Below are positions 1 through 42,679 of a stretch of 64,000 nt of DNA, one piece after another. A program made the position numbers and the translations under genes. The notes beneath the pieces were generated by a model, which saw only the letters and a list, made by a program, of their open reading frames with translations, was not told the origin of the DNA and searched no databases. Source of the DNA: Candidatus Omnitrophota bacterium (GTDB lineage Bacteria > Omnitrophota > Gorgyraeia > Gorgyraeales > Gorgyraeaceae); NCBI GenBank assembly GCA_030649895.1, contig JAUSEX010000037.1, positions 3,815 to 67,814 on the forward strand, read 5' to 3'. Every line of letters starts with the position of its first letter. The stretch's first letter is position 1.

Positions 1-3000
1 CTACATATAAACATGCTGCTGATGGAACTCTATTGGAGCCACCTACGATCGAAAGACATTATCCGCTTAAAACAGGAAAAGAAGATGTAACAGCTCTTAA
101 TCAGCCTGATAGGAAAGATAATACAGCAGTCCTGGTTTCTTATAATCCTCCTGATGGAGGGAGTATAGGAAGTGACCTAGATAATTATGGTCCTGTAGGG
201 GGCGGTTCTGATTTCAGTTCAAGTGGAATAACAATAGGAGATAAGACTTATTTCAGAACGGATAGCAATGATAAAGTGATATTTACTGCCACAGATGGAA
301 GTTATCTTATTGTTGATAAAGAAGCTGATAAGGCAATTGAGCGATATGATGCATCTAATAATGCGCGTATTATTTATAACTCTGACGGGTCAGTTAATAA
401 AGTGTATGAAAATGGTGTGGAGAGAGGATATAAAAATAATATTGTTTATTTTGCTAGAGCATATAAAGATGTGGAGATAGCAGATGGTTATATTGTTCCT
501 GAGGGCACTAATTTTAAAGTTGAGAACGGAGAAATAAGATTAGCAGAAATAATAGTGGTTACAAATAAGCCTGTATGGTTAGCTGATAAAGTGCAAGTGG
601 GCATAGGAAGCACATTCAAGGTAGAGAGTGACGGCAAAATGAAATTAGTTAAGGCAAAAGATAGTTATGCATATGCAGAAGCAAAGTTTGGTAATTATAT
701 CCTTGTAAATAGCGGATCGTTGAATGAAGATATGAGCCCTAAGGCAGGCATGGAGCTGAAATACGATGGAAAAAGCTATTGGGTGGGGGGTGATGGAAAG
801 ACGCTTCTTGATAAAGGTCCTGAAAATAAAAAACAGGACAATCGTTCATGGTGGGAATCAGCAGTTGGCGCTATAGGAGATGCAGCTGGTGCTGTGGGGA
901 ATGCAATAGGAACGATCTATGATTATTCTATAGTAGGCCCGTTACTTGAATGTGTCTTTATGGGCATGGGTCACGAGACTCCTGAGTCATGGAAAGAACT
1001 TACGGGTAGAGATACCCCGCTGAAATTTACGAGTGATATGAAAGGTGTTTGGAGAGTTATTAGCGGCAGTTGGGATAAGGCCTACGGCAGCCAGCTAATA
1101 GAAGGTAGTAATGCGAGAGAAGAAGGTGCTATGCAGGTGTGGTTGGTCGATGAATTAAGAAAAAAAGGATTTTACAAAGATGATGTGACAAGAAAGGAAA
1201 CAGATCCAAAAAATGACATTTGGAGGACGAATCTTAGAGGAAAACCCACAGAAGAGATTTTAGAAATGATAGATCCTAATGATAGAGAAGCTGCTACACC
1301 TTTAGTGGAGAAATATGTTGAAGGAATAAAAAATCTTGATAAAAGAGCAGCTAATGCTGATGCAAATATTGCTGAAGCAAGCTCAAAAATAGGCCCATCA
1401 GGTAATGCTATTTTATTTCTCTTGCCTAACAATGGCGCTATATTTCAATTTGAAGATTATTCTGTTATAGACTGGGTTTCTTTAGTGACTATTCCGTTAA
1501 TGTTTATACCTGGAGTCGGCACGGCTGCCGGCGCCGCAATTAAGGTAGGCGCCACTGCGTTAAAGGCACTACCAGGCGCATTAAAACTTATGTCAGTTAT
1601 ATCAAAAGTAGCTCCGGTTGCAGTTAAGCTGGCGCCAGTCGCAGAGAAAGCAGCTCCGGTTGCAGTTAAGTCAGCGTCAGTTGCAGAGAGACTAGCGCCA
1701 CTAGTTAGAGGGGCAAATTTCTTCCTTGAGACTGGAAAGAATTTTATTATCTCTCCAGTTAAGGATTTTCAGGCTTTATCTAAATTAGTTAGAGGAGTTA
1801 GGCCAGCGCTTCGAGTTCCGAATTTAACAACTATTTGGAGAAGTATAATAGGAGCGCCAGGAGAAAATATTTTGAGTAAAATAATAAGGATACCAGCAAG
1901 GGCAGCCAATCAGTTATTATTACGGCCGGCAGCTTTTGGAGTTAGTGAAATTGCGCCACGAATCTTTGCATATGGGACGCTAGGTGCTCCGTTTTTTGGT
2001 ATCACTGGTATTGGAATAGGTGACACTGGGCCATTAGGAGTTTGGGCTAATATTTCTAGCGGGATGTGGGCAACAATGAATCGGGTTTTCTATAGTCTTC
2101 CTGTGGCACCTTGGCGTAATAGTGAAAAAGCACAGGAATTCAAGAATATAGCCAATGAACATTCTCAGGCTCGGGATAAAATATTAAAAGGATGGATTGA
2201 AAGCGTTGGTTCTATTCCTGTGGCTGGATTTGTACTTCAAATTCCGCTTATGATAATGAGTTCGCTTTTTAGCTTTGCTGAGTTTCCTTATAGTTTTATT
2301 GGTACCAGTGCAGAATATGGATTGCTTAAAGGAATTACTAGCAGCGTTGCGGGATTGCTTAAATTTATGGTCAGCGTACCAGAGGCAGGGATTAATGGTA
2401 TGCTTTACCTATTTACAGGTAAAAATAGAGTATATCAAGGCAATCTTTCTGATTGGATAACATTGCAGCTAGGCGAAGGATACCTTAACTGGACTTCTCC
2501 AGATGAGAGTTATAAAGACGTTGAAGGTCGATTTAGTACGCTTGAAAATGTTGAATATCAGGGTTTCGCATATGCTATAGCAAACGCAGTATTGCTCCCG
2601 ATGTTTAATCCTAAGATGAAAGGGGAAGGAAAGTCAAATCGCGCTGAAGGACGCAATCGAGAATTAACAGCTAATGAAGCTAGTAGTGTCGTAACTAGGA
2701 CTGTTCTTATGCCAGTAAATATTGCTACAGGAGTCGTGTATGCGCCAATTCGGATACTTTGGTCTGGGATAAAAGGTGAAAAAAGAGGCGGAGGCTGGAA
2801 AAAAGGCTTTGTTGAGGCTGGCAGTGGCATTATGTCGCCAATTGTAGGCCCATTCAGGGGTAGATCCTCTATATCTCAAAAAGCCTATCGCTCAACAGAG
2901 CTTGGGCGCGGACCTTTACTAAATGCATCCGGCAGACCTCTTAACGCTCCCAATGAAACAGGTGGGCCTTTACTAAATGCATCCGGCAAACCTTTTTATG

Positions 3001-27000: not shown

Positions 27001-30000
27001 CTGATAGCAAATATGTGTTTCCCGCTAGCTTGCTTCAATATACCGGGGAGAATAAAAGTAATGCTGGTCAGTCAATGCTCAAAATATTAGCTCCTTTTAT
27101 CGCAATAGTATTTATTGCCTGGTTCTTTATCAGCATTGTATTAGCGGCGCATACTGCGAATGCAGCTGGCTCTGGCAGCGCGGGGGCGCAGAACCGTGTT
27201 ATCCATCAACAGGAGGATGCGCGGATGATCCAGACTCCCGAGGTTGACATTCGTCCTGACGGTTTCTATGTTGAGAATAGAAGGATATTTATTGGGGCGG
27301 GAGTAAATTTCAGGATTTTGGATTATGACAACAATTTTGGGGCATATAGGCGGGTAACTGATTATCCTGAACAAGTAAAGGCTGAGCTGGCTGCTATACG
27401 CAGTATATCTCAGAGAGGGACTGTTGTTATCCGCGTGGGGTTATTGGATTCAGGGGTTAATTACTTTAAAGGCGAAGGTAATTATGCAAATATTCGGGAT
27501 GATGTGATTGCTTTCCTGCAATGGGCAAAGGATAACAATGTTATGGTAGAGTTTGTTCTAGCTGATTACCTGTTGGCTGCTCGTCATTCTGATGCCTTGA
27601 CCCATGATATTACCAGACAGGATATCACCCAAAGATTCTTAGGGGATTTGGTAAGGGATATCAAAGCTGATCCTAAGGCATTTTTAAGCCTCTGGGGATT
27701 TGATTTATACAATGAACCGGAATGGTCTGTCAGCCAAAGCTTTGGCGGTGGATGGGAGTATGTTACAGGAGAAAGGCCTGAACAGCCGATACCAATTGTG
27801 GATATGAACGCCTATTTTAATGAGGCTTACGAAACTATAAAGTCTATTGCTCCTGAAAAGTTCGTCACTATCGGCGTTTCAGCAAAGCATTTTAGCGTCA
27901 TAGGCGCAATAAAGGATAGGTTAGATTATTTTGCCCTGCATTACTATGCTTGGATGGGGCCTTTAGAAAGCTATGTCAGTCAGCTCCCGGAGAATAAACC
28001 TTGGCTATTAGAGGAATATCCCAGCAGAGACGAAGGTATGAATATCGAACCCGCTGTTTACTTGGATAATCTCTTAAATCTATGGAATACAGGTAAGCCT
28101 GCTTCAGGCGGATTAATCTGGATGTGGAGGCCAATCATAGGGCAGGCGGATGAAAATACCTCTGATGAAATGGTCGCTAAGCTTAGAGATTGGACTGCGC
28201 AACATCAAAATGAATTGGAAGGTAAATTTGGCCTGTTTCTTCCTCTAGTGTTCGGTTTTGCTTTAAAGCGTAAAGGAAACTTCTCGGAAACAGGAGAAGA
28301 TTCCTCGGAATTAGTTGATTGGAAAGCAGAATGCGATAGCCTTCCTATTCAGGCATATGATTCGGATTATTTTGTCGCTGCCAAGATATGGTCTTATAAA
28401 GGACTCAAGGTATTTTTTATTCCAGACCACAAATTCGAACACACCTTATTAAACCTGATGCGAAAGGCCTTAGGTTTTAAGTTTAGAGAGATACTTTCAG
28501 ATGCGCACGATGACGCAAGCTATCCGACTGAATATAAACCTTTGGATCCCGGAGAAGCCAGCGAGGGAGAAATTATTGATCGTTCCAATGCCTTAACTTC
28601 TGCGAATTGGCGTATGGCTCTTATAAAAGACGGGACCATCGCGGATTCTTATGACTTGTCGGTAATTAAGGCAGATGAGGGCGAAGGCCGGATACTTAAA
28701 CTGCGTTTAGCGCAATTTCCGGCAGTTACGCCTTCGAAAACAGATGAGACTATTTTAATTATTGAGAATGATTCTTTTGGTATATTTGACAGTAAAGAAC
28801 TTGAAAGAGCAATTAGTGAGTATGTCGACGCGCTTTTTAAACTTAATATTGAATTTGACGATGTTATTTTTGTAGACGCAGGAGATAAACTGTCTAACTG
28901 GATGATCGGCCCGCCAAGCACGCGTTATTATAGAGAACATATCTTGCGATTTTTATTGGCTAAACTTGCTGAGAAATACGAAGGCGGCGTAGATTATTCT
29001 ACGCAAAGAAGAAATGATCCCGCAAAAGAGATTAAAGGCGCAGAGGGAGATAGAATGGCAAATGGGGGTGTTCCCCGATCTGAGATGCAATCCGAGGCAT
29101 CAAAAGAAGAGCGGCAGCGTGATATCGATACGCAATTTATAGGCTTATTATACAGGGCTGCGTTTAATAGGCTGCCTGACATAAGGCATGATTTCGCTAG
29201 CGTGGTACGGGAAATGATAAGGGCAATGGCGGCTTACCGCGAATACTATCTTCTTTCTTCCACTCCCGTCAGAAGCCCGGATTCTATTACGCTGAAACTG
29301 CTCAAGGAAAGTATCGGCCAGGATGGAAAATTCCTTAATGTTAATTCTCATGCAGTTATGCAGCTGCGCATGGTAAGAGAGGTTTTTTCAGCAGATGCAA
29401 TGGTAGCAGCAATTGGTTATGATGACAAGAATGCCGAACTTCCGGTTATCGATCGCGTGTTATCATTAAAAACCGATGACTTGATTCGATATATTGAGAA
29501 GAATAAAAATAATATTGGTAAATCAAGGTTCAAAATATTACCTCTAGCGATACTATTTGGCGGATTTGCAGAAATGTTTTGGGGTTTTCCCTCTATTGCT
29601 CAGTCAGCGGGCTTAGAGGAGGCAGTAAATCAGAGAGCGTTCTTTCAGTCATTATTTTCCGAAACAACCTTGATAACCTTGGGGGCAATACTATTTACAT
29701 CTGTATCAATTGTAGGAGTAACTTTATCTTTATATAGGGTTTTTAAGCATAACTCCAAAAATGTAAGAGAACCTTCTCCTGCTCCTGACAAAGATCTAGC
29801 AAATGCTTCTGTTTGGGCTTTAGAAAGGATTTTGCATATTATAGATGAATTAAGCCGTGCAGGGGAAGAAGGAATCAGGCAGCTATTAGAGGAGATGAAA
29901 AAGAATTCTGAGAGCGTAGGCGTTGGAACAAGCCATGTAGAAGTTGCTGAAGAAGCTGATAGATCAAAAAATCAAGGACTAGGCGTTACGTTATACTCTG

Positions 30001-31868
30001 ATATACTGTTTGGGCTTGGAGGGGTTATTTCCAGAAAGATTACGCAGCTGATACAGCTGGTGCGGCTGGCTCGCGCTCCTGAAATAAAAAAATCAGCTTT
30101 TGAAGAAATAAGTTCGGATATCGAGCAGCTTAAGAAGAGTGGATGGTGGGAGAAGCAACCATTAAGCGAGAGATTGCGTTGGTTAATAGAACAGCCTAAG
30201 TACTACAGTCTACAGATTGATGAATGGGAAGAGCTTCTGGGTGTGAGTGGCCTGTTATATGGTACTTTGCGAGCCATACTCAAAGACCCTGAGCATGCGG
30301 TGCGAGTCAGAATGGACAAGATTGGTACGCTAAAGGCCCCCAGCAAACGACATGACTTTCCTCTTAGAATACTACCAAAATATCTTAAGACATATGGTCT
30401 TTGTGATTGCATAGCAGTGGCCTTGTATGATCCAGAGGCCAAAATAGGGAAGATGCTGCATATTACAGTTAAGAGCGATGCTGTAGGCATGATTAATGAG
30501 ACTATAAAAGAATTCAATTCTCGCGGACTAGAGGCTCATCTTATTGGCGGATGGCCGGATAGTTCACAGAAGCTTGCTGTCACTATATTGCGCGCACTGG
30601 AAGAACAAGGCGTTTCTGTGAAAAGTTTGGACATCTTAAACTATCTTGATAGATTTATATGGGATGAAAGAGACGCATTGCATGGCGACAGATCCATTGC
30701 CATGGATGTTGAGACGGGTACGCTCTTCAATCTGGTGGATTTAAGGCCCTCACAGCTTTCGTTCGGGGAACGGCTTTCTCAGCACTTGAGAATCTTGAGT
30801 TGGAGAACTCAATGGATATTCAGACGAGCGCATTCTTATTTATTTTTTAGATTGGTAAGCCGATTGACAGGCTATCTTAAGGACTTAGGTAGACTTCACG
30901 CTGAAAGCAGAGCTGATTCGCCTATACCGTTAGTAGGATTATTTACAGGTATACAAAGGGATAATATTTCGTCAAATTTACCCAGCAGCAGTCCGCATCC
31001 CTTGTCCCAGGGAATAGTAAATGGAATTATTAATTTATCAAGACTTCCTTTGGCAATTCGCCTTGATGCGCTGGTTTTAGACGGATCGTTCTACGCAGGC
31101 GAAGCAGGAAGCCTATTGAGAAAAAAATTAGGGCATATAGTGGATTCAGTAAGGAGTATAATTGGCCCAGATAAGTTAAAAACTTTGAGTGCAGGTAGCC
31201 CTGATGCCGGCATAAGCGAAATAAGCGATTTAGCAAACGGTGAGCCGGAACAAAATGACGTATCATCTCAAGGTCCTGTATTGCACAAAGGCTATCAACA
31301 CCACGAATTTTATGGATGGCTTAAAGAAAGAATAGAAAAAGGTGAGATTGAAAGGGGTTTGCCTCTTATTGTTTTTGACTATCATTCTGACGCCAGCTTA
31401 ATGGATGAAGGCAAAGTTACCAGGCGTAACTTTCTTACTCATTTAAAAGCGGAAGGTTTGGTCGGTGATATATATTGGGTCCAGCCGTCATGGAGCGAAC
31501 CTTTTTATCCTACAAAAGAGCAATCAGGGATTGAGTATAAAAGAATCATCCGCGATCTTCAGGAATTGTCAGAGATAAAAGGCAGGGTATTGGTAAGTAT
31601 AGATTATGATTATTTTTCAATTGCTGAGAGAAGCGGGTTTGCTCGTATAGTTCACGAGGTCAGCGCAAAAAGGGAAACCAGGGAAGTGATGGAAGTTTTA
31701 TTCGGGAATGAGAGCTTGGAGATAGTGGCCATTGATTTAACCTGGACCGGATCCGAGTTTATGTACCATGGCCAGGCAGAGTATATTGACAAAGGTTTAG
31801 AAGATAGTCTTAAGGCTGTCTTCGAAAAAGATATTTTAAGAAAGCCTGGTACCCTGACGAGCATATAA
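1..31868 (+). CDS. giant multi-domain membrane-anchored protein, 5'-partial (reading frame open to window start; at least 10,611 codons in window)
   Basis: Frame-3 reading frame has no stop from nt 3 to TAA at 31866-31868. The ORF-track TTG at 33 has sense codons upstream, so the true start lies beyond the window edge. At least 10 clusters of hydrophobic TM-like helices, long K/E-rich helical linkers and several recognisable enzyme-like modules (see sub-features). All minus-strand and off-frame ORFs inside it are short shadow ORFs. Confidence 0.85.
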   Translation, partial: TYKHAADGTLLEPPTIERHYPLKTGKEDVTALNQPDRKDNTAVLVSYNPPDGGSIGSDLDNYGPVGGGSDFSSSGITIGDKTYFRTDSNDKVIFTATDGSYLIVDKEADKAIERYDASNNARIIYNSDGSVNKVYENGVERGYKNNIVYFARAYKDVEIADGYIVPEGTNFKVENGEIRLAEIIVVTNKPVWLADKVQVGIGSTFKVESDGKMKLVKAKDSYAYAEAKFGNYILVNSGSLNEDMSPKAGMELKYDGKSYWVGGDGKTLLDKGPENKKQDNRSWWESAVGAIGDAAGAVGNAIGTIYDYSIVGPLLECVFMGMGHETPESWKELTGRDTPLKFTSDMKGVWRVISGSWDKAYGSQLIEGSNAREEGAMQVWLVDELRKKGFYKDDVTRKETDPKNDIWRTNLRGKPTEEILEMIDPNDREAATPLVEKYVEGIKNLDKRAANADANIAEASSKIGPSGNAILFLLPNNGAIFQFEDYSVIDWVSLVTIPLMFIPGVGTAAGAAIKVGATALKALPGALKLMSVISKVAPVAVKLAPVAEKAAPVAVKSASVAERLAPLVRGANFFLETGKNFIISPVKDFQALSKLVRGVRPALRVPNLTTIWRSIIGAPGENILSKIIRIPARAANQLLLRPAAFGVSEIAPRIFAYGTLGAPFFGITGIGIGDTGPLGVWANISSGMWATMNRVFYSLPVAPWRNSEKAQEFKNIANEHSQARDKILKGWIESVGSIPVAGFVLQIPLMIMSSLFSFAEFPYSFIGTSAEYGLLKGITSSVAGLLKFMVSVPEAGINGMLYLFTGKNRVYQGNLSDWITLQLGEGYLNWTSPDESYKDVEGRFSTLENVEYQGFAYAIANAVLLPMFNPKMKGEGKSNRAEGRNRELTANEASSVVTRTVLMPVNIATGVVYAPIRILWSGIKGEKRGGGWKKGFVEAGSGIMSPIVGPFRGRSSISQKAYRSTELGRGPLLNASGRPLNAPNETGGPLLNASGKPFYEPSIAMLGEDTLSYRPEIKEQADKQAFDRTVHKLEKAREKARTAQEDYQKGRTDKDRLPSEKRELARRTREAQVDFLTLKSRIEKGIWTYGLLDSLRNPIEAWKARNNAAKINPTNELIGSTIREYLKYDTAELRNGFKNALEAGDLVDALSYGLALFGKDLEIKGKELDTKPDQLNAQLDFGWKLGEALKEITEKGGLESPLALIFEMGGGKTASAIIMNLFAIEYAIRNGRTGYNLYVTEKALLARQFIEGNTWAFLEFDKTSGEFTTITGRKGRVVTGMDPESESRFLNAASDKDVELIVMDGQAADSIKLAVDRSNNSQELREALGRMRAASGDEFDSMLKGTPAIIGTGELLDQMKRYADEGNEKAKGLVAAAELQTTVMIDILNIVQKYGGFKDINQVAIDTQLSRFGRLKRQFGFGGPKNETEIRGRYAANDKVIAEVVSLLERKGMSSDGARSLANEAVNALSLKEGIDYYLKYNEIGKLIGYEVTDKATIRLENTRFGSSKLAAFVMAKEALVKFNEGRMSLDEIKQLVNEELLKTTLASADFASFVELTGKNKWVLFSGTKGMPKTMKRLGVNAVEIKTSEINWDEKGLLKIIAARGQKAQSDKILAEIKDAKTQKRAIVIVHRGNVEELKQLARDAGISEENIHAMTGENPAKLADFEKEARSRLQNTEGEFEVIILPGFEAGSNMLEIGSKNYKVSVVVTHFKDRDRLAQTFGRANIEGRRASADFRVIVDVMKDDSLVMKAEREVILEMLDSGKTETEIEMDIQNKMKEIAEQILAESDIATVRTLEEREQPVRVAETQNELTPELFSKVENNFYREFGRAETGRKTLVDTFREAVAKVIEEGKTPEAFNAAIKGMASEFRGRAMQIGAIANPAIASQIRGSNNEDDKNRLSFRLLLEGVKILFAMRSFTDEGLFEQMPVLAVLAMPTMPAVTEKQKNRLVEIEAALMDKNVTSEERQKLLNEKKSILEMVFGKINDYLESELKFEKEQKETVMEGVKFLSGNFKSNDPAFEQFRVNPLAVMQQIATGKVKGVESVVVKAIRELVGEPRENLPLWSKTWDRITRRTSPQINFARVEIAVNDIANALGVDRDIVETNLLKLMGYTLSQIGTIREQHSLLLELGGEEFGKTLANTLPIADILIKLGSKSISQRVEFINSLVMGEKTAKQYGVTKGSDAVLKVSSAILGILKAKSGKLTWRDLWTDKEIESSGLDKRQVAIIMGINYSILENLPADLVDLYDINILADSEMMGKVVGVYKIFEKIDPEFAKWLVEPVKTALPSGLAELQRDDPEMFALIEALQRNQGAPSRVFGISNLIGESDSEELKKVLTRLLIPGVSKEAPKEEKENIYSRRLDILTSSIGEEGLESEYSPAARIEMAIGVYDFLSSVGVNARGVSWEDVKKLKSFADMAQAIESASYREIIKAIKQGMPQEEKLEYLFKVAKAIENKDEILLKSLGVLNDEDWLSQFDPADQGLLRRLLAGESSIEEIREEVVESGRLVGTGAHAMAIRLLNEKGILKLLDSSDPELIERASQRYQDAKKLIPELVIPYVIRTDKGEDITIIIQEKVVTSRYELDSLIEAKDMEGAKTYVRKLVELVYKLAEKGIVFDSAVVNSGLDILANTAVDANGNVKVLDVANLNLKPNKEEDIRAGVNKVLERLQTDIGDGLLKQEFAMERQTQDAIYDINKERGEKQVELAKNIASKWLEEALADITRGGPKKIDRLLHDPARIPPNIYFAFTYIKQSFLDFQTLLLKPEVEYASIINLFIERAFTHAEDIVSSGINGVYEEKMGVFIDEIRKDPAKLKMLADLLGRRSSDMAGIDNFTITRAIGGVSAVNCGVQALQVVLEQWAPGAIKGLTPEELRKKLAGEITDEVIAIIEAGFGDPESESAKLSREIVMNLMEGKIGHDIIIAVAEKEYGVKNVNPVTIEIDEAALEKSLEGIGTSFILWVPGHFMPIVGYRGGLFVTKTLKGEDVGIDVRDILNKYIHEAGQASGGTITIIIPGNDTKDNKRYYGATPDLYSLFKPEPITSDAGVTYFGSLASSGKAISSAGAGQEKAAEQKERGFVRNLRKIFEKHRKLTAALIIGATIAAGIVALPVIVPIILPAMVTALPILLGGGAVIMLFAAPGIFKFVRSLRTRAPPQFTPITRKSDEAQIKSRIEEQFGVDLKDINSDDWKEILVQAVLADYRAYQLGSHKEYHKNKTVNYFIEYPMMIVNVLTLRVLDQFFFKHWRQPFSYFLSRRGDKKHYLGEQAQAVMEALISQQIAKKSGDVAQKNTLESVHSKLKTELVSVIPTSIVANRVAGLLEKRLAISSLEERSALNIAGSILTGVVLGAVSLANQRLRFAIFSAISSGILFGLLGPAGLFGSLVGAGFLTGTLVTIGMPLGLAALSISPLILLSPLLLLAFLNFPVSYAKHRRANPDENIVKSLLIVLMSPKYWAANIMSVPMLIMVGPEIEGTIRYTEHIPLVGDFAAWMEKAIYGAHDKETGQPTVPVGQKLLERLPGGSQLSDFTYRIFSLGRGGDLQSAHMKSQIAAIVATAKIDDKSFKEEPAALKEAPVSDAKGSEQGVTVEGYQLLVDGKPYQMKGVTWRPSEDNNFSQWYQKDITLMKEMGVNTVRTYRPIDDQKVLDYLAMNGIKVIIGFDYGKDIQTGAYKDYINKFKGHPAILLWEFGNEYNYHSDWFGGDINNWYNTLEKTAQEVHKIDKSHPVATAHGEIPDKNALVKVPSVDIWGMNVYRSDSPQAIFDEWGARSNKPMYFSEAGADSIDNRVDKEVQSVQANANVHIWSQVNAASSKLHPNNVSAGAVFMEFNDEPWKPKGFQHDGVYPDNFANEQHFGFVDKDRNPKEAFSKMKDGWSESPFSEALTGAKSITKIYEGDKHTKTAYNMGAVNILEEKLLLSPEAQIFPEVQKILVSDIRQVLKVPADKKIELKDVKFDKIIEVDTVTGARTVKYDYGFLPGKQDKTIIKISQGAHEIFVRRVAGAIDKNENYPYMENAGWDILDEKGKIVQYDAESPEVLERLKKLAQNKDSKLPDEVKKSIFNAQVAVRVYKLVEGGRFVEDRVSAIEANREAIRFYAKPETVTSGGRTFEVSGKAVVDTYEAIKAIYYYDSSYQLMTSKGEALTKDNAGDVIGWVRVTGDKLLMSDGAEYSVIEELKPDKTTMVRRFASDDKGNERAKISNLPEGGYLIQVVDENEVIGDDKADMLTYNGTKEGGLYKFSTDKPYLTSLLKDSFEIKVDEKGIATEEGVNSVLSDFTFANESLKNAARDALNKGLNEIINSLGLKDGKVHVMHIVKEEVRIANDGVKFNYRVEEDPAAKIVAYVSSDMKEKADVIINTKWEGENSLEGYQFSPIGQIFKLKTEGDILSPDDVLKDLDIQLREQLEQKGIKVKELSLSKLNQYLVVHKDGKDKDYEVLFHTRYIMRDDPLKRDYARYDRGALRFIKFAHNKTDIPFGVPDGEVIVAPEIQRIIRETEYFEHRPGDNEYIYKVIFEYRNGQEYKNEPIFIGYDYKTAVVWEHYVNEEWKLYSRDGLPFEVSRVDGAKEYLYSVFAITVFEDGGNSYIMASENIKSSTPVTPPTTRISRDNTLWRIIEGRGIDSFIHQDVYATSMTDKFLNSAPGRLVKRIMGSDDLEKLMDKIEKQGMEIDIDYRRCFDKLEEGVFVDKTRYLMNQAWIGAIGFLALLVSLPIFRRFLGSKGIRWIFRKTGRRIVNVNATEADRLREVIGTPGLADKLIVLRELSGPIIINSNLPAADKGDFLRDYLSVSGFDPEEVNEIVGLFNSGKITMEDKDVDPKSLPRAPPIDTLQHLEEAIAKKNYPAAIVIKALLEKKLITQDDLEGTFRKEGALREGALKWDLLVKVLLNKAQDKVLGEIKEGDFTNVDKLLPTPEAKVLQYVVKNDLIAKPDLIELSHKDSGYSGFTGFAIGLIKEKFIQPVFDDVFSRTFGAEITEGIKDITLETVFAEIHPFIFKDPSLLKQIIDTKDAEYNPNPMNKAIETTTLKEFILLKFIQLNPSQTNNHSIGQFSAIWPFALYVVREAKNALDNERSPEEILSIITAYKDVFIPLVSQEVLKKYKKQITERDPWEEIEGAEKILLDVFSDLDFYDLFERLSKKETNLLDRLSVNGTSFALVEDLRNAITNGRISQDDLAKELKKLTLDLSMEDAPEAVQADEATEKGLIFGWFKLGLVHLYVSRIFKPLFSSKFWGIDSRAKKIGFTVMLFGLTGLGIVIMPHFLALGAVLISFGVMLSPIIWGKSSSPKEKIFWASIFGATSIYTFGIMTHFLFWKLSLVALTFGTVATGGLLVLVFIPTLISFYHLAVSLRSYIGLHKELWSGTARSLTGWRSIAPWPTRWNSLFKKWYVEFKDVERDHMALTSNGESITEYLERLVNLLHERYLFSDDEKSDWIKALNSEGKEGKFRKPRSPKAFEILYNAFFAISQKKPAPDVYSLLQPTSTHVQAAGELFTHTFENSALLGTFDDHPLLDELIYSLKQRIGLNDEDSVKNKKWGDINSLGKMLSIEKLERRLADCENLNEEEKQIIRERILDFSEKHNWTSMKRSLLGYMARTQKPEWENLMDRIKQQIIKDKDKETFLEELRGITEKYDIYTLLFVTNYGLTQEERQFIIESMMKWLNELRPTDAAVIESMALDYVEYHLSISYQSGDLEYHGAAREISMKYPSLKEAYEVISSKAEGDRDNTEKIFFSGYKKYKFLVSIKLRQLFQDQTVWAADADLAKNRIPPVDKFVKSLKNIQKDTATSDIIRELLSGGDMNPLLKYNITDLDDWAEKFISWRRANYDNIVALINAYSALADDWNKISSQLATMVHQSSSSGVKYAFYKQEDNFIPKLKNPGIGNELWLYYGKSVNFDAHVRNYPGQNVWRFNWAALQGRNPNIAVVNTMMKIWASSNSAFPATNIYSIAQEVFTSDVQRARRGMLTFYGKACVVPQAVSVVTPPGEDSAAFLLLQRTNPSYTSTQIDWFGFEWGRMSFAGSIIGTEMRYAYNVTRFLMDRGQFELFYNKDLGFDKKLSHLFLWAHYFVVPFSLGLLVLLPILAPFSAFAFLTPVIFFVAASFLLMEAINTNNFVRHWRQTGNLWVAAVYTIKDIVRAFPLYVVLLPFFLRGVWSASKEIFSFIRTQKEARLAMENKKDWYSDKMLFKLWNKSGFPFSGVVGIWGLISWVAALFTMTPWGPIILLPYLMASIAFLTGMYVFTTSADSKGNLKGMSLSALFRMLPYSIGKTIYYLWLFGKDRIGKFRNKPSAPAAPTGTIGSEGSEKYIPGIRTSKLSEDARVLVQAKIGEIESRVKNASNLNIDERSKISDAILKLREYFARGDIVSFTAFVNGPEDYLLAFATSAQIVIMSDFFNRPELHTYLDEVLFHEAYVAAHGEKDYEAHRAIYLGIQRKIFGEENPLKGILREIINSKNQANESSAAVGLAGKKGSAARSFRALLDRLFGREERLGRLKVLREVASELNDETIAEMVYTFATDFLGDESKVLIGDTPGDPVMQVKIILGANGEIEKKTLQVHKMFLDRVISKEGTPEYDTYKKILKFLLIKEGEHYKTSSSYDLIKIAHLKRQYEQNPKDIEAAKRLAAIQMYYEADKYGMLYDNLLSQGITAEGLKEIANQENDEFLRDVLSGLAGLMTNYEKSGYLAIAKDLAQGTGYIAESVRAALTDERFSNNLAELTDKSGLEDYYRYVETGVKEMPYKKGLVFGSSNLLVQTPKRLLEDIYAQIEEGQIKNDNLEKLKEGYAVIICRLAATDVKTFDLLEEGLNRLLDSEMVRRKAEKTVNGSTMVFVNIVDKNANELLKFLLAELRKAAPVYSGKIEKLYQNLAAGDLPRDSQGNFRAFTKEELTERLKARAEEIKKARHSLKGYRIDQAVSMLIELLEGSKLSERELNELYPDIASALYGEYEKLQGAFMLYPQVVKAITERFPGAHKVFIARDAGVFYEAAYLYSLINGIKLDSSLVYAGGVDVAGMGNLSHSIYILRQLVETAKTRGYPEEEVEKIVKKAIENRLNPESKNFDRLFADDTERLFQIIRESGILEHENEVLIDTFSSGATPLFIKYAIERLRQDKVSPKIFILKSKYGFFDNLKNAGFDWGFINKVTQEYKKTHPVMPGLKLAQPEAELFSYLRAMITYNAMVEYKSRVIAARGGFIREGDARFFFGTKKKTLTPASGTAAKGKALLPPHEHGSVNRAIAQARSENRGYIIQRSGTKLARGWKDGKYADKIKLRKAIELLMVEHIRELGRIVLPSGLGEIILAEDLGALNIILIQPRNKSPGLMVESKNAFHVAHPGISYNSIYIDRLTFDQLDIRELAALILYEIIELKTKNLSLGKKRNWRPELAEEIHRLAEEYEQIIVGPSQTGTGSLLDDKVQQILEDSFVFRIQNLIDPYMSELKPLLDKYHRMATEIKEAEAIIAEEAERVKALLNELSSLSRDRIKSLHEELKSLMEAYSGENAAKTESARKIIEKREINKVIDKINVFSRVPENQIELAEAGDVGSLDEFLERSDADEYIKRAEDSIIHGEHVVEFFFAGAATRFIEDLRASGRTIEKKDEPQYRMYGLDIWDFAGPARKDSSDLGLGMAQRQLFAYRTFLKNLALKKGLHPDEVLKRQRLILHINEDVEEMVLKDFMDNVFYGFDPDNIFFMVQETLHGYSLKDGKIVFAEDSPKLPFGHGYATEQLNVPGVAFHLKVKNGIMHREYLSEAVLTELELKTAGYYIDTHRVNDLTKFLVDEVVDVRKLAFKIFLIEQENDVIIELVENPGKQKGGNLIKDKRTGKYFLIETSNTEGSDRLKELLTKASEDSAPYNAFRIMYRRRGLEELLKKRFPYNLRFKNGYFYLEAVTGDITQLEEANAAAFKEKGAVIKDFKRLGDLGIAIPVLTKSDKDLADVVNQTRHKQSLAGRKLKDVISRLLRQGLPHDFIERAILSMPLEHTSSDTVSVDRLVAQIVEWRTLMDNCLAEKGEIRVAIKNPKDVYYKDVPEEEIPSSIDYTELTIVSRDRPGLVRDIETVIAEYGGNLTRPAFGAMNDEGMARLIYEINHAERKNAFNSREIEELRKALLKIKVGLAPLSIKPEYGFEGWRKVEGDADAYEGKLVIDGNVMDLKVVKSASSFEYFLGYEGGPAGYARILFNNKKLKVHYLELSPSFRKAIGDISAAKVLMNIMIRDLFFIGSQDLSGLIVQVVMNEDSSTPKVNNLIGGFGITEFNREKVMSIIMDEKSKISIEETKAPHEGVPYFRVVLEGKLPLKIFLKARLEYSYKDKRTWIISRKIYEQMESDARYKLGQAPLQVKEQARLKGELARRLQEDEVFVGGVDFYMDPDKVEWLEEHTASLPENPWLVIDDLGSAHAPREQNAPSLLANLFTGKWSKFNWATRAVFSLAIVPHEVGHLFMAKITKTPLLRKLYIEDLSSKMPIAERASPIVHLAGLFVNASVAIASAFTLHFFGHAVIDFTNPLAGILSYVFLANSILFALEIILDATTKLRGDVTNAIFGRSGFASQINVQRAKNIFFTFKEYMNEALYNPDWGYYASGRVKIGTVRKGSDFITYPLKLSPLFGGMIAEQAFKMWEGMVRAGTITENEQFTILEFGGGDGTLAYDILSRASQKALDNPDWAKFYRALLYTIGDRSPPLIEIQKKKNARFNGKFNTVLVDALNPLEGGVFKPSSIKGLILSNELLDVSGHQKLIVYPDGDIKVTLSIPKISLALLGNLPKDKQNELVKRNEELISEFKLPLTDGIYLSRDDFLALKAYLRDLGPEQENLFNQEIRFIEIYIDPIYVPEVLSYIQENKESIDGFVADNEKPFAVYINPDGAGYIQGAGEILDKGYILTIDYGGLSDYILDPQYEHLLIIKNGSRDADPYSLPGQRDISAEQNFTDLAAAGQKIGLNTVFYGNQAHLEEGVTPLTSQSLLEELAKRFQGQEPGLSSEEAMKKARREVDEFRLSGIINDPGRSPYKMLIQQKPGTDSKYVFPASLLQYTGENKSNAGQSMLKILAPFIAIVFIAWFFISIVLAAHTANAAGSGSAGAQNRVIHQQEDARMIQTPEVDIRPDGFYVENRRIFIGAGVNFRILDYDNNFGAYRRVTDYPEQVKAELAAIRSISQRGTVVIRVGLLDSGVNYFKGEGNYANIRDDVIAFLQWAKDNNVMVEFVLADYLLAARHSDALTHDITRQDITQRFLGDLVRDIKADPKAFLSLWGFDLYNEPEWSVSQSFGGGWEYVTGERPEQPIPIVDMNAYFNEAYETIKSIAPEKFVTIGVSAKHFSVIGAIKDRLDYFALHYYAWMGPLESYVSQLPENKPWLLEEYPSRDEGMNIEPAVYLDNLLNLWNTGKPASGGLIWMWRPIIGQADENTSDEMVAKLRDWTAQHQNELEGKFGLFLPLVFGFALKRKGNFSETGEDSSELVDWKAECDSLPIQAYDSDYFVAAKIWSYKGLKVFFIPDHKFEHTLLNLMRKALGFKFREILSDAHDDASYPTEYKPLDPGEASEGEIIDRSNALTSANWRMALIKDGTIADSYDLSVIKADEGEGRILKLRLAQFPAVTPSKTDETILIIENDSFGIFDSKELERAISEYVDALFKLNIEFDDVIFVDAGDKLSNWMIGPPSTRYYREHILRFLLAKLAEKYEGGVDYSTQRRNDPAKEIKGAEGDRMANGGVPRSEMQSEASKEERQRDIDTQFIGLLYRAAFNRLPDIRHDFASVVREMIRAMAAYREYYLLSSTPVRSPDSITLKLLKESIGQDGKFLNVNSHAVMQLRMVREVFSADAMVAAIGYDDKNAELPVIDRVLSLKTDDLIRYIEKNKNNIGKSRFKILPLAILFGGFAEMFWGFPSIAQSAGLEEAVNQRAFFQSLFSETTLITLGAILFTSVSIVGVTLSLYRVFKHNSKNVREPSPAPDKDLANASVWALERILHIIDELSRAGEEGIRQLLEEMKKNSESVGVGTSHVEVAEEADRSKNQGLGVTLYSDILFGLGGVISRKITQLIQLVRLARAPEIKKSAFEEISSDIEQLKKSGWWEKQPLSERLRWLIEQPKYYSLQIDEWEELLGVSGLLYGTLRAILKDPEHAVRVRMDKIGTLKAPSKRHDFPLRILPKYLKTYGLCDCIAVALYDPEAKIGKMLHITVKSDAVGMINETIKEFNSRGLEAHLIGGWPDSSQKLAVTILRALEEQGVSVKSLDILNYLDRFIWDERDALHGDRSIAMDVETGTLFNLVDLRPSQLSFGERLSQHLRILSWRTQWIFRRAHSYLFFRLVSRLTGYLKDLGRLHAESRADSPIPLVGLFTGIQRDNISSNLPSSSPHPLSQGIVNGIINLSRLPLAIRLDALVLDGSFYAGEAGSLLRKKLGHIVDSVRSIIGPDKLKTLSAGSPDAGISEISDLANGEPEQNDVSSQGPVLHKGYQHHEFYGWLKERIEKGEIERGLPLIVFDYHSDASLMDEGKVTRRNFLTHLKAEGLVGDIYWVQPSWSEPFYPTKEQSGIEYKRIIRDLQELSEIKGRVLVSIDYDYFSIAERSGFARIVHEVSAKRETREVMEVLFGNESLEIVAIDLTWTGSEFMYHGQAEYIDKGLEDSLKAVFEKDILRKPGTLTSI
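1607..1705 (+). repeat. in-frame tandem short repeats (~21-33 nt units) inside giant ORF encoding K-V-A-P-V-A-V-K / L-A-P-V-A-E-K-like units
   Basis: gtagctccggttgcagttaag / ctggcgccagtcgcagagaaa / gcagctccggttgcagttaag / tcagcgtcagttgcagagaga read directly. Confidence 0.7.
2910..2993 (+). repeat. 30-nt direct repeat x2 (ggRcctttactaaatgcatccggcaRacct) separated by 24 nt, in-frame (GPLLNASG(R/K)P)
   Basis: two near-identical 30-mers at 2910-2939 and 2964-2993. Confidence 0.8.
8478..8960 (+). other. papain-like cysteine peptidase-like module within giant ORF (C39-like arrangement)
   Basis: ...ITRAIGGVSAVNCGVQALQVVLEQW... followed ~115 aa later by ...ILWVPGHFMPIVGY...: Cys-Gly near the start of a helix and a downstream His in a hydrophobic beta-strand, as in papain-fold peptidases. 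Motif-level only. Confidence 0.3.
10761..11630 (+). other. clan GH-A (4/7 TIM-barrel) glycoside hydrolase module 1 within giant ORF (GH2/GH72-like motif pattern)
   Basis: LLVDGKPYQMKGVTWRP ... MKEMGVNTVRTYRP ... ILLWEFGNEYN (acid/base Asn-Glu) ... KPMYFSEAGAD (nucleophile Glu position) ... FMEFNDEPWK. Same motif order as the free-standing genes at 57450 and 60712. Confidence 0.6.
21680..25140 (+). other. ~3.5-kb internal module of giant ORF paralogous to free-standing CDS 42725..46426
   Basis: Colinear protein similarity over ~1,100 aa. Example: GYIIQRSGTKLARGWKDG...NIILIQPRNKSPGLMVESKNAFHVAHPGISYNSIYIDRLTFDQLDIRELAALILYEIIELK versus GYIIRRNKTTISRGWKEG...NIILIQPRNRSPGLIVKDRNAFQVAHAGVAYNSIYIDKITFDHLNIEELAALVLHEIIEIK. 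Similarity continues through the nucleotidyltransferase-like, ACT-like and C-terminal regions. Confidence 0.8.
22681..23175 (+). other. UDP-sugar pyrophosphorylase (UDPGP family)-like nucleotidyltransferase module, Gly-loop degenerate
   Basis: EFFFAGAATRF (cf. LLAGGQGTRLG loop of UAP1/UGPase), DNIFFMVQETLHG (cf. NVxFFQQ motif), LPFGHGYAT (cf. APDGNGG). The Gly-rich loop is replaced by AGAATR. Confidence 0.4.
25255..25300 (+). other. HExxH motif embedded in hydrophobic TM segment (site-2-protease/M50-like arrangement)
   Basis: AVFSLAIVPHEVGHLFMAKI inside a cluster of TM-like helices (25230-25560). Confidence 0.3.
25630..26780 (+). other. MidA/NDUFAF7-like (Methyltransf_28) class I SAM methyltransferase-like module
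   Basis: YMNEALYNPDWGYYASG ... FITYPLKLSPLFGGMIAEQAFKMWE ... FTILEFGGGDGTLAYDIL ... LSNELLDVSG ... ILTIDYGG. Motif order typical of the MidA/NDUFAF7 family. Confidence 0.55.
27227..28140 (+). other. GH5/GH26-like (clan GH-A) glycoside hydrolase module 2, preceded by a TM helix (27080-27170)
   Basis: RIFIGAGVNFRILDYD ... VIRVGLLDSG ... LWGFDLYNEPEW (NEP acid/base motif) ... HYYAWMG ... LLEEYP. Confidence 0.45.
31290..31800 (+). other. C-terminal arginase/deacetylase-fold-like (UPF0489-like) module
   Basis: LPLIVFDYHSD ... VLVSIDYDYF pattern resembles the DxHxD / SxDxD metal-binding motifs of the arginase-deacetylase fold. Weak. Confidence 0.2.
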
Positions 31869-32007
31869 AGATTTTAGCAAACCTTTTGGGTGGAACTGGG
31901 CGGAATGCGCTATTCGGGCAATAGAAAACAGGCGTTCTGCTTATAAAGAATATATTTGTACGCCAAGACTATGTGGAGGAGATAATTGGTAAACAATTTT
32001 GAATTTA

Positions 32008-32040
32008 TGTATAGTAGGATGTCCCCGGATAGGACGTCCC
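32008..32040 (-). repeat. REP-like element copy (reverse orientation) with 5' GTAG, just upstream of the HExxH gene's probable start
   Basis: tgtataGTAGgatgtccccggataggacgtccc. Near-identical to 33891-33922. Confidence 0.6.
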
Positions 32041-32042
32041 AT

Positions 32043-33179
32043 ATGCATAGTCCTAGGCCTATTCTAAAGTTTATCTCTATTCTTATTGTTTTTATCTTTA
32101 ACTTTGAAAGTGTGGGACATTGCTTGCGGGTGCCGATGGTAATTAATGAAGATAGGTTTAGAAAAGCTGAAAGCGATGTTGCGGGGAAAACAATAAAAAT
32201 AAAATATCAAAGCATTAATGATGTTGTCTTGCAAGAGGTTAAAGAAGGCGAAGCAGGCTTTGAATTAGCAATGCAAGTTAGATATCATGCATATGATTCA
32301 ATGGGGAAAGTTGAAAATGATTTACGAGAACAGTTAATTAGAAATAACTGGTGGCTTAAAGCTATGTGGACACAAAAAGGATTGCCAAAGGAGCAGATTT
32401 CTATAACTATAAATGGACATATAATTGATGCTTACAATTGGAATAATGAAAGATTATCAGAAGAACAAATATCTCAGATAAGAGATGTCTTAAGTAAGTT
32501 TGCAATAATTGCAGGCGGGATTGCTTTGAAAAGAGTTCGCTATATTCTTATTGATAATCTAAGGGAGATAAATCCAAAATCTAGAGAAGAAATAAATGGT
32601 CGTGGAACGGGTCATGATCAGGTGATTTGGCTATATTTAAGAGCCATTCGTCCTATTTCTCACCGCGTGGAAGGAGCTACGAATCTTGAAGGAACATTGA
32701 TTCATGAACTGTCTCACAGTCTTACGTATATTATAGAGATTGATTGGGCAAAAAAATTTGGATGGAGACGCTTAGGAAGCCCTAATAAAATATTTCTAGA
32801 TGGCTCATATAGTATGTGGCAATTAGAAATTCCTGCACGCGCTGTAACTACGTATGCTGGAGAGTTTGATCCAGGGGAAGATATTTGTGAGAGCATGGTA
32901 GCTGCTCTGAAAAATCCAGAAATCTTAGACAGGGAACGCCTTGATTTTTTAAGAGGAAGTTTTTTGCAACCTTTAGATGAAAGAGATAACGAAATTCATA
33001 TTTCTGTAGAAAGATTTTATAAAAATAATATAGTATTACCTGCTGTTGCATCGCCGGTTAGATTTAAGAGGCATATATTAGAGCTTGAAGAAATTCCTGT
33101 TGAGTACCAGGTTGATGAGGAGTCCCTAGCTAGTTGGTTCCCATCTTTTCAGCCAAGAGTTATTGACAACGCTATTTAA
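32043..33179 (+). CDS. HExxH-motif putative zinc metallopeptidase with N-terminal signal/anchor
   Basis: ORF 31986(TTG)-33179. I prefer the ATG at 32043 (MHSPRPILKFISILIVFIFNF... signal-like) because the REP-like element at 32008-32040 lies just upstream, as for neighbouring genes. GGAGGAG at 31973-31979 would support the 31986 TTG instead. Single HELSH motif (GTLIHELSHSL). Confidence 0.55.
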   Translation: MHSPRPILKFISILIVFIFNFESVGHCLRVPMVINEDRFRKAESDVAGKTIKIKYQSINDVVLQEVKEGEAGFELAMQVRYHAYDSMGKVENDLREQLIRNNWWLKAMWTQKGLPKEQISITINGHIIDAYNWNNERLSEEQISQIRDVLSKFAIIAGGIALKRVRYILIDNLREINPKSREEINGRGTGHDQVIWLYLRAIRPISHRVEGATNLEGTLIHELSHSLTYIIEIDWAKKFGWRRLGSPNKIFLDGSYSMWQLEIPARAVTTYAGEFDPGEDICESMVAALKNPEILDRERLDFLRGSFLQPLDERDNEIHISVERFYKNNIVLPAVASPVRFKRHILELEEIPVEYQVDEESLASWFPSFQPRVIDNAI

Positions 33180-35863: not shown

Positions 35864-35886
35864 AGTTAGAATAAGGGCGTTTTATT

Positions 35887-38896: not shown

Positions 38897-38960
38897 GAGT
38901 TGTAGGGGGACGTTCTATTTGGAGTTGTAGGGGGACGTTCTATTTGGGGACACCCTATAC
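38897..38960 (+). repeat. two tandem 25-nt REP-like copies (AGTTGTAGGGGGACGTTCTATTTGG x2) + GGACACCCTATAC, overlapping stop codon of upstream gene; AGTTGTAG occurs 3 times
   Basis: Read directly at 38888-38960. Confidence 0.65.
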
Positions 38961-39125
38961 AAAGACAGGCTTTATGTTGAATATTAAAAAAATATTATTA
39001 ATCAGGGTAATAAGCTTATTACTTTCAATAAGCGTCGCGCTTCCAGACGCTGCCTATTCTCTATCTGAAAGCCTAAGAGTTCCATTAAATACCCCGGAAC
39101 TTAAAGAGCGGCAGGAAGAAGTTCA
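38923..39125 (+). repeat. leader module B copy 1 (REP-like motif + RBS + signal-peptide coding + LR[VA]PLNT.ELKERQEE), ~90% identical to 42680-42885
   Basis: ...tttatgttgaatattaaaaaaatattattaatcagggYaataagcttattRctttcaataagcgtcgcgcttccagRcgctgcctattctct... shared. Confidence 0.8.
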
Positions 39126-42666: not shown

Positions 42667-42679
42667 AAAAAGCAAAGGA

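Follow-up and report, generated by a model that had tools for sequence, protein, structure and literature searches.

Among Omnitrophota genomes, 43% of those of high quality and 94% of those that are complete have been reported to encode proteins of at least 10,000 amino acids (aa; 10 kAA), and 5,761 such proteins are catalogued; 94% of this long-protein catalogue carries transmembrane (TM) helices and/or a signal peptide, the mean is 22 TM helices, clustering at 30% identity leaves 80% of the proteins as singletons, Pfam domains are missing from 15% of the analysed set, and the loci are flanked by GH2-type (glycoside hydrolase, GH) and transposase genes (Nielsen & Lui 2026, 10.64898/2026.06.07.730766). 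The type protein of the 'Archaeovorins' has 39,678 aa and comes from Velamenicoccus archaeovorus LiM (West-Roberts et al. 2023, 10.1101/2023.11.21.568195; Kizina et al. 2022). West-Roberts et al. (2023, 10.1101/2023.11.21.568195) set the cut-off for 'giant' at more than 30,000 aa and described a divergent SecA DEAD/preprotein-binding domain in most of these proteins, a locus resembling type II secretion systems and type IV pili (T2SS/T4P) upstream, C39 or S8 peptidases near the N-termini of full-length giants, and pilZ, binding-protein-dependent carbohydrate transporters and glycosyl hydrolases downstream. According to the literature the V. archaeovorus protein is expressed, and long open reading frames (ORFs) are transcribed as single mRNAs. 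Here we describe a 64,000-nt stretch of Candidatus Omnitrophota DNA (contig JAUSEX010000037.1 of assembly GCA_030649895.1, positions 3,815 to 67,814; hereafter the window), in which one reading frame of 10,621 sense codons enters at the left edge. Our reading, to which we give a probability of about three in four, is that this is a real Omnitrophota giant gene for a membrane-threaded mosaic protein of known type, with a glycan/UDP-sugar role.

The present protein fits the long-protein class in its Omnitrophota genome, its length of at least 10,000 aa and its TM segments (about 20-22). It resembles the Archaeovorins in coming from the same phylum, in being encoded by a single huge ORF free of repeats, and in its many TM segments and its GH and methyltransferase modules set in long unannotated sequence. 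The downstream genes are also of the Archaeovorin type: PilZ (53970), a solute-binding protein (SBP) with permeases of an ABC importer (54317-57453) and clan GH-A hydrolases (57450 and 60712), which start about 22 kb past the giant stop and not directly after it. However, the visible part of the protein is under the 30,000-aa cut-off, and of the Archaeovorin domain set only the GH and the methyltransferase were present, while glycosyltransferases (GT, including GT1/GT5), NUDIX, peptidase and HEAT/TPR domains were undetected with Pfam and NCBIfam. Neither PF07517 nor any SecA model matched in overlapping 1,000-aa tiles at E<=0.1; such a domain may lie upstream or be too divergent. Because SecA-DEAD, HEAT, GT and NUDIX were undetected, and because the N-terminus and upstream locus lie outside the window, the gene was not filed as an Archaeovorin; it is an Omnitrophota long mosaic membrane protein, not a proven Archaeovorin. 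An earlier note on this DNA, made from the letters alone, had matched it to the Omnitrophota type of giant protein; the match holds for the long-protein class, but not for the Archaeovorin hallmarks just named, which were not found in the visible part.

In kind it answers to the 'Archaeovorin'-like class or to Class 1, the 'multi-enzyme metabolic cluster' of Nielsen & Lui (2026). With Class 1 it shares a length of at least 10 kAA, differing enzymes, no dominant repeat, near-unique sequence, a TM count near the catalogue mean, and GH2-type and transposase flanks. In contrast to the large Class 1 examples with tens of Pfam families, it has two, which places it close to the 15% 'Pfam-dark' fraction. 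Giant repeat adhesins (RTX/Bap/Ig-like) and nonribosomal peptide or polyketide synthases (NRPS/PKS) resemble it in size alone, whereas the present protein has TM clusters within the chain. Likewise, no dockerin or TSP3 Pfam match and no internal repeat, as expected of a dockerin-type scaffold, was found. The earlier remark that proteins above 10,000 aa are very rare is right for bacteria at large but not for the Omnitrophota, where they are common (43-94% of genomes).

Extent and coding character of the giant frame

In frame +3 of the + strand there is no stop codon from nt 3 to nt 31865; the stop lies at 31866-31868, and the 5' side is open at the window edge. The result was unchanged under genetic codes 11, 4 and 25, and an explanation by an alternative genetic code was rejected on this ground. 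Each of the remaining five frames holds 311-1,104 stops over the same stretch, and a stop-free frame arising by chance is therefore excluded. The uninterrupted frame from nt 3 and its non-random nature were both claimed in the earlier note and are upheld here. Its length of 10,611 codons is the count from the TTG at nt 33, and the stop-free stretch itself is 10 codons longer, to the window edge; the DNA, which it called AT-rich, is merely moderately so, with a GC content of 40.6% in the window.

The GC content at the three codon positions (GC1 ~0.50, GC2 ~0.36, GC3 ~0.35) was even along the giant frame, purines made up 62-74% of position 1 in each 3-kb tile, and GC and GC skew were steady. Codon log-odds scoring ranked the giant frame first in all 105 windows (mean +0.20; remaining two frames, -0.49 and -0.74). 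This uniform signature bears out the claim of genuine coding sequence. ORFs of 163-274 aa on the antisense strand were rejected as genes, as their codon usage scored below the sense frame. It is confirmed that the giant frame is one genuine, very long gene.

The codon log-odds table was trained on eleven non-giant genes of the window. Scoring windows were 600 nt.

The earliest in-frame start codon is the TTG at nt 33. Because it is without start-like marks and the opening residues are unlike an N-terminus, the gene most probably continues upstream of the window. That no start lies in the window, as had been stated, is not provable with TTG and ATG codons present in frame. Extension of the gene in the 5' direction, proposed as a check, gave nothing: peptides of aa 1-600 had no match in species-representative genomes or in JGI metagenomes. 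An exact-protein look-up of the downstream gene g632 also gave no match.

Enzyme modules, membrane segments and relatives

The features of the giant gene, in window coordinates, are as follows.

3-31868, + strand: giant ORF, 10,621 sense codons plus stop, 5'-truncated by the window (ORF scan, codon statistics)
1464-2759, + strand: three TM-like segments, aa 488-506, 738-756 and 901-919 (Kyte-Doolittle scan)
9291-10292, + strand: TM cluster of six hydrophobic segments, aa 3097-3139 and 3336-3430 (hydropathy scan)
10773-11621, + strand: predicted clan GH-A (GH2/GH158-like) TIM-barrel glycoside hydrolase, aa 3591-3873 (Pfam, PDB search, alignment)
14481-18788, + strand: region aa 4827-6262, collinear with protein P0111, with TM segments at aa 5238-5333 (BLASTP/phmmer, hydropathy)
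18204-18704, + strand: TM cluster of five segments, aa 6068-6234 (hydropathy scan)
21609-25160, + strand: 1,184-aa block, aa 7203-8386, sub-modules A-D, paralogue of g1266 (BLASTP, profile searches)
22320-23882, + strand: sub-module B, predicted divergent UDPGP-type nucleotidyltransferase, flanked by long helices (profile, AlphaFold, Foldseek)
25374-25541, + strand: two TM-like segments, aa 8458-8513, separating the UDPGP-like block from the methyltransferase (hydropathy scan)
25785-26777, + strand: COG1565/NDUFAF7-type S-adenosylmethionine (SAM)-dependent methyltransferase (Pfam Methyltransf_28), aa 8595-8925 (Pfam, PDB search)
27084-29726, + strand: two strong TM-like segments that stand alone, aa 9028-9046 and 9890-9908, with an unannotated stretch between (hydropathy scan)

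Two families of the Pfam database, Glyco_hydro_2_C and Methyltransf_28, exceeded the gathering score in the 10,621 aa. The whole chain was searched in 4,000-aa tiles and then in two overlapping sets of 1,000-aa tiles, the latter being the segment-wise check that the earlier note had proposed. With NCBIfam, run on the first 10,000 aa, the GH module alone stood above noise. To call the protein a mosaic of enzymatic modules with recognisable domains, as that note did, is an overstatement of what the sequence offers, since Pfam sees two families, the third module was reached through a custom profile and a structure model, and about 90% of the chain is dark.

The Glyco_hydro_2_C match at aa 3591-3873 scored 34 bits against a gathering score of 21. 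The best PDB match of this module was the GH158 protein 9oro (E=3.4e-10), and GH2 glucuronidases were also matched; by BLASTP it is 27% identical to the stand-alone hydrolases encoded at 57450 and 60712. The glutamate motifs GNE and SEAG are kept, aligned with TE[YF]G of the stand-alone paralogues. In clan GH-A, GNE would hold the acid/base and SEAG the nucleophile glutamate. As compared with clan GH-A (GH2, GH158) the module has the same TIM barrel, above the Pfam threshold, with the NE and E motifs kept, whereas it consists of the barrel only and lacks the sugar-binding and Ig-like domains that GH2 enzymes have besides. By these motifs it is predicted to be a retaining glycosidase of clan GH-A that keeps the two catalytic glutamates. 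The Methyltransf_28 match at aa 8595-8925 scored 86 bits against a gathering score of 23.3 (E=3.4e-24), and the COG1565 protein 4f3n was matched in the PDB (E=1.6e-9).

The third module lies in the 1,184-aa block, which consists of sub-modules A (aa 7203-7450), B (aa ~7462-7932), C (aa ~7943-8124) and D (aa 8125-8386). When a 27-sequence profile of sub-module B was searched against the PDB, 17 of 17 matches were UDP-sugar pyrophosphorylases (best E=1.5e-8). Its AGAATRLG loop aligns with GGxGTRLG of these enzymes and its PFGHG with PxGNG; T-R of the nucleotide-binding loop, G-H-G and Q-K-G-G are invariant or nearly so in the family alignments. The roles of the TRLG nucleotide-binding loop, the P-x-G-H/N-G loop and the K-G-G motif are presumably those of the UDPGP family. 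An AlphaFold model of aa 7440-7960 on a 48-sequence alignment reached a predicted local distance difference test (pLDDT) of 88.9 and a predicted template-modelling score (pTM) of 0.87. With this model the top 50 Foldseek matches in the PDB were all UDP-GlcNAc, UDP-Glc or UDP-sugar pyrophosphorylases (UAP/UGP/USP), at E 3.8e-15 to 2.4e-12, probability 1.00 and template-modelling scores of 0.44-0.58; scores of 0.5-0.57 were reached over ~450-500 columns. A model of the whole block on a 4-sequence alignment had a pLDDT of 43.6 and was not taken to the fold search. Because profile matches, confident model and fold search agree, sub-module B is predicted to be a divergent UDPGP-type sugar-1-phosphate nucleotidyltransferase.

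Fold and profile-level similarity thus relate sub-module B to the UDPGP family (UAP1/AGX1, UGPase, USP; PF01704). On the other hand, it is 12-17% identical to the top PDB matches, its glycine-rich loop is AGAATRL and not GGxGTRLG, it sits between long helices in giant or long multidomain proteins, and it is invisible to the Pfam model: PF01704 had no match in the giant tiles or in five stand-alone homologues of sub-module B, and these five had no Pfam visibility at all. Sub-module C gave a weak ACT-like match at aa 8028-8080 (E ~5e-4 to 1e-3), under the gathering score. Sub-module A (window 21609-22352), about 220 aa in length, is conserved as a domain and carries a 'LLAHEAIELGAK' motif that is almost invariant; in long proteins it adjoins TPR and M20 peptidase domains. 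A PDB profile match of sub-module A to the minimal metallopeptidase MJ1213 was not significant (E=0.27), and no claim of a metallopeptidase is made.

It was found in a tBLASTN search of the window proteins against fetched loci that the block has a second copy in the window, and BLASTP of g1266 against giant aa 7203-8386 gave 52.8% identity over 1,199 aligned positions. Elsewhere, a profile search of 1.84 billion representatives with the block returned 235 proteins at E<=1e-3, 94 of them at E<=1e-30. Sub-modules were counted in 151 proteins (150 of the 235 matches plus P0001): A was present in 20, B in 134 and C in 5, in differing combinations, and D, restricted to the giant protein and g1266, in none. 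Among the same 151, 81 have at least 1,000 aa, 17 at least 3,000 aa and 5 at least 5,000 aa, whereas 62 are stand-alone proteins of at most 650 aa. Elsewhere sub-module B is fused to phosphoglucomutase (P0019), nucleoside-diphosphate kinase (P0005) or a PEP-utilising domain (P0090), partners with which a role in nucleotide-sugar making fits. A metagenome scan with the module alignment gave no match. Taken together, the paralogy of giant block and g1266, and the varied combinations of its sub-modules in other proteins, show that duplication carries modules between giant genes and neighbours of ordinary size. P0001 and P0002 (ABIG46_01830 and ABIG46_01825, from one Omnitrophota metagenome-assembled genome, MAG) are near-identical A-B-C copies on separate short contigs; they stop at the same residue, which suggests that the assembly broke at a repeated module, present in at least two copies in that genome.

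The occurrence of the block as a gene of its own raises the question whether the long chain is a polyprotein, a precursor cut into ordinary-sized enzymes whose mature forms are seen in the stand-alone paralogues. The block would function as a separate gene product in g1266, sub-modules occur alone elsewhere as proteins of ~450-550 aa, and the C39/S8 peptidases reported near the N-termini of full-length giants might process them. However, no peptidase domain exceeded the threshold in the visible 10,621 aa (the hint in sub-module A being non-significant), no recurring cleavage-like motif was found, and the motif LR[VAT]P[LMI], close to one that the downstream genes carry in their leaders, does not occur inside the giant protein. 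Processing of this kind is thus unlikely.

Three segments of the giant protein were also used as database queries. No relative was found for aa 1-1500 or for aa 9422-10621, orphan ends that fit the published singleton rate of 80% at 30% identity (Nielsen & Lui 2026). For aa 7150-8400, a word index of 5.8 billion protein clusters gave two partial ORFs from one other Omnitrophota MAG (55-57% identity), in one of which the block is preceded by 583 aa unrelated to any window sequence. When the 151 proteins were compared with the giant by BLASTP and phmmer, P0111 matched aa 4827-6262 in four collinear blocks (23-34% identity), with module B further on. P0111 is a 4,381-aa ORF without Pfam domain, open at both ends, which fills the 13,142-bp contig L014 (JBDRJF010000021.1, GCA_043815185.1); as a piece of another giant gene, it keeps the block order of the present one over more than 3,000 aa in one ORF of another genome. 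The start of P0090 corresponds to giant aa 6107-6266, and its module B comes 900 residues further on. The succession of the TM cluster at ~6070-6235 and the UDPGP module is kept in single long ORFs elsewhere, and the continuity of the frame over this part is therefore independently supported.

These relatives bear on whether the gene is an artefact, either a chimeric misassembly or a row of adjoining genes fused by sequencing errors that removed their stops. The organism is uncultured, giant genes are known as hard to assemble, and aa 1-1500, 7150-8400 and 9422-10621 are almost without database relatives, so that continuity cannot be cross-checked there. Yet an artefact would need about ten same-frame genes without spacers, each with its stop lost, and GC, GC skew and codon signature are uniform, none of the 105 scoring windows preferring another frame. 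Moreover, the block order is conserved in P0111, and ORFs of such size are the norm in the phylum. It seems very improbable that the frame was created in this way.

No internal repeat was detected by self-BLASTP of the giant protein at E<1e-5, the five overlapping rows listed by Tandem Repeats Finder for the gene amount to just four small arrays, 29-85 bp long, and the amino-acid entropy was ~4.0 bits per 250-aa block throughout, which means high complexity. In agreement with the earlier note, the chain is thus not repeat-dominated. A repeat-built adhesin (RTX, Bap, Ig, cadherin) or an NRPS/PKS megasynthase would be suggested by size alone; repeats are absent from protein and DNA, many TM clusters lie within the chain, and no Ig, cadherin, RTX, dockerin, TSP3, condensation, adenylation, ketosynthase (KS), acyltransferase (AT) or other NRPS/PKS domain was detected in Pfam and NCBIfam scans of the giant chain. 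Both readings were rejected by these repeat searches and domain scans, and their probability is negligible.

A Kyte-Doolittle scan gave ~20-22 TM-like hydrophobic segments in ~9 clusters (aa 488-919, 3097-3430, 4694, 5238-5333, 6068-6234, 8458-8513, 9028 and 9890), in agreement with the TM clusters seen earlier and near the published mean of 22. A segment was called where a hydrophobic 19-mer held no more than one charged residue, which is a crude hydropathy predictor. A deduction from TM parity that modules lie on the same membrane face was dropped, the scan being ambiguous, e.g. as to one or two helices at aa 5238-5280. Blocks rich in E/K/R/Q/L/A lie at aa ~1000-2750 and ~6250-7500, and long predicted helices flank the modelled UDPGP-type module on both sides, which fits the coiled-coil-like linkers of the first description. 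At the C-terminus (window 30900-31865), 'FDYHSD…IDYDYF' motifs occur within the last ~200 residues. The label UPF0489 is not claimed for this end, the match being sub-threshold (E=0.12, 13 bits) and without PDB sequence match.

Downstream genes, their shared leader and the source lineage

Downstream of the giant gene the following features were found.

32007-33179, + strand: g397, unannotated ORF with hydrophobic leader and LRVPM (leader comparison, domain scan)
33306-33896, + strand: IS200-like Y1 transposase, 196 aa (Pfam Y1_Tnp, E=5.9e-15)
33965-38895, + strand: g632 and g1002, large unannotated ORFs whose signal-peptide-like leaders, with LR[VT]PL, are 91% identical (BLASTP)
38974-42666, + strand: g1240, with leader, GalE (UDP-glucose 4-epimerase), weak GT2-like region and APH/CotS-type kinase (TIGRFAM, Pfam)
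42725-46426, + strand: g1266 (1,266-aa gene 42626-46426), with a leader 80% identical to that of g1240, then the paralogue of giant aa 7203-8386 (BLASTP)
49630-53274, - strand: operon of FIST sensor, GAF histidine kinase (HK) and response-regulator (RR)-GGDEF, cyclic di-GMP (c-di-GMP) signalling (domain scan)
53970-57453, + strand: PilZ (53970), then ABC sugar importer of SBP and two permeases (54317-57453) (domain scan)
57450-61935, + strand: GH-A hydrolases of 782 aa (with TPR) and 407 aa, both of secreted appearance and paralogous to the giant GH module, on either side of a 238-aa ORF (domain scan, alignment)

The leaders of g397, g632, g1002, g1240 and g1266 begin with MLN[IL]KK…, and have a positive n-region, a hydrophobic core of 12-17 residues and LR[VAT]P[LM]. 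This motif was absent from the first 90 residues of all other ATG-start ORFs of at least 100 aa in the window, and no curated NCBIfam or Pfam model covers the leader. In a related Omnitrophota MAG (L004:5122-9000) a 1,292-aa ORF upstream of cstA has a like leader with LRPQL. The leader may be a lineage-specific sorting signal on enzymes of cytoplasmic look. In g1240 and g1266 the likeness reaches 5' of the ATGs (window 38944-38973 and 42680-42724), with …LGTPYTKTGF-M against …LGTFYSGTPHTKRGF-M in frame, and the duplication therefore took in the 5' leader region of the gene.

GalE of g1240 is a TIGR01179 equivalog (364 bits against a cutoff of 262), and the Pfam matches of this protein are Epimerase, APH and a weak Glycos_transf_2; its middle and C-terminal parts recur inside P0129 (7,679 aa) and P0053 (2,082 aa). 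The Y1 transposase among the leader-bearing genes fits the transposase-rich flanks reported for giant-gene loci. Further downstream lie ArfB and then CstA (47506-49269). The c-di-GMP set (FIST, HK and RR-GGDEF on the - strand, PilZ on the + strand; 49630-54305) stands between the giant-gene cluster and the sugar importer. ARAGORN predicted tRNA-Leu(GAG) at 49351-49435 and tRNA-Glu(CTC) at 53495-53572, of which a Rfam scan at gathering threshold listed tRNA-Glu alone.

Five Candidatus Omnitrophota MAGs match CstA at 83-90% identity, all further matches being at 69% or below, and the adjoining HK, RR-GGDEF and FIST genes are syntenic and 63-92% identical in three of the five. Because CstA has this identity with Omnitrophota MAGs only, the giant gene is, by its neighbour, carried by what appears to be an Omnitrophota genome; together with a downstream context as in published loci, this supports the earlier assignment to the Omnitrophota type and not to an adhesin. 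A 7.2-kb Logan contig from SRR13727527 covers nt ~42.7-49.9 kb with identical proteins, including the g1266 copy. In the nearest sequenced relatives (L004 and L005; CstA 85-87% identical) no giant frame was found in the 10 kb upstream of cstA, and the genes 5' of cstA are ordinary-sized or of 1,100-1,300 aa. The giant-gene cluster is therefore a variable insertion beside a conserved cstA-RR-HK-FIST backbone.

Proposed function and site of action

On our reading, the ~20 hydrophobic segments split the chain, in clusters, into large, non-repetitive soluble stretches of high complexity, three of which carry predicted carbohydrate or cofactor enzymes: the GH-A glycosidase, the UDPGP-type nucleotidyltransferase and the COG1565-type SAM methyltransferase. 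The chain might in this way hold many enzymes at the membrane. The locus would support the harvest of glycans and the salvage or remodelling of UDP-sugars at the envelope of a host-dependent cell, by hydrolysis, uptake, 1-phosphorylation, UDP-activation, 4-epimerisation and transfer. Probable partners are the UDPGP copy in g1266, the fusion of GalE, GT2-like region and APH kinase in g1240, PilZ, the ABC sugar importer and the two further GH-A hydrolases. We infer that the giant chain, the neighbouring enzymes and the importer form a glycan-to-UDP-sugar route, in line with published hypotheses of predation or episymbiosis.

Several points weigh against this reading. The window edge cuts the gene, and its N-terminus and upstream locus, with any signal peptide, any T2SS-like neighbourhood and the full length, lie outside. 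The giant gene is known here from DNA sequence alone, and the independent assembly, the Logan contig, matches outside the giant frame only. About 90% of the visible protein is without annotation, the sugar theme rests on three modules and the neighbours, and SecA-DEAD, HEAT/TPR, glycosyltransferase, NUDIX and peptidase domains were, as said, undetected in the visible chain. The TM calls come from a crude hydropathy scan, and TM parity between modules is unreliable. Finally, UDPGP-like enzymes and GalE need cytoplasmic cofactors, yet the stand-alone versions bear signal-peptide-like leaders, a misfit with simple cytoplasmic salvage. The membrane side is indicated in two ways: a cytoplasm by the cofactors that UDPGP, GalE, kinase and methyltransferase require, and export, possibly into a host, by the Sec-like leaders of the stand-alone copies.

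The last point may be accommodated if the giant protein and its five leader-tagged neighbours are an effector platform, exported by Sec and then by a T2SS-like system, and acting on or in a host or prey. Nucleotide-dependent enzymes would then meet their cofactors in the host cytoplasm while the hydrolases digest the wall, as in the predation model of West-Roberts et al. This explanation differs from the glycan/UDP-sugar route set out above solely in the place where the enzymes act. It would account for the n-region, hydrophobic core and LR[VAT]P[LM] shared by g1266, g1240, g397, g632 and g1002 and for the like leader on the 1,292-aa ORF elsewhere; GH782, g238 and GH407, the two hydrolases and the ORF between them, are also all secreted-looking by leader. 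In the literature, giant genes stand by T2SS-like loci, their predicted domains are mostly extracellular, and the V. archaeovorus giant protein is reported to be more abundant on prey contact. However, no secretion system is visible in the window (the upstream side lying outside it), the leader could be a membrane anchor, and export of UTP-, ATP-, NAD- and SAM-dependent enzymes would be unusual, the cited authors themselves doubting such localisations. Delivery to a host is thus possible but doubtful. A more specific proposal, which we regard as rather improbable, is that the leader, not described before, marks in this Omnitrophota lineage a family of exported 'free-standing giant-protein modules' which, with the giant, would form a nucleotide-sugar and glycan-remodelling machine outside the producer cytoplasm, its modules swapped by duplication. 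The tagged GalE, APH-type kinase and UDPGP-like enzyme would in that case act in the periplasm, in a contact zone or inside a host cell.

We return to the glycan/UDP-sugar reading for its meaning. The Omnitrophota giant genes, most of whose sequence is unannotated, pose the problem of how a cell makes, inserts and uses chains of 10,000-150,000 residues. Giant genes are already well documented in the phylum, and with the present locus a further, almost orphan example joins them. What is new beyond this is modest: a dark module family, unmentioned in West-Roberts et al. 2023 (10.1101/2023.11.21.568195) and in Nielsen & Lui 2026 (10.64898/2026.06.07.730766), is annotated as UDPGP-type, the giant gene has a stand-alone gene as paralogue, and a leader is shared. 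The Pfam-invisible UDPGP-type module, with 235 cluster representatives mostly in long proteins, would tie these proteins to nucleotide-sugar chemistry. The 1,184-aa block, present in the giant chain and as an ordinary gene, is a natural experiment on the gain and loss of modules, and the conserved leader on five neighbouring genes is a candidate sorting signal. The picture of the phylum is thus unchanged, and its annotation is refined.

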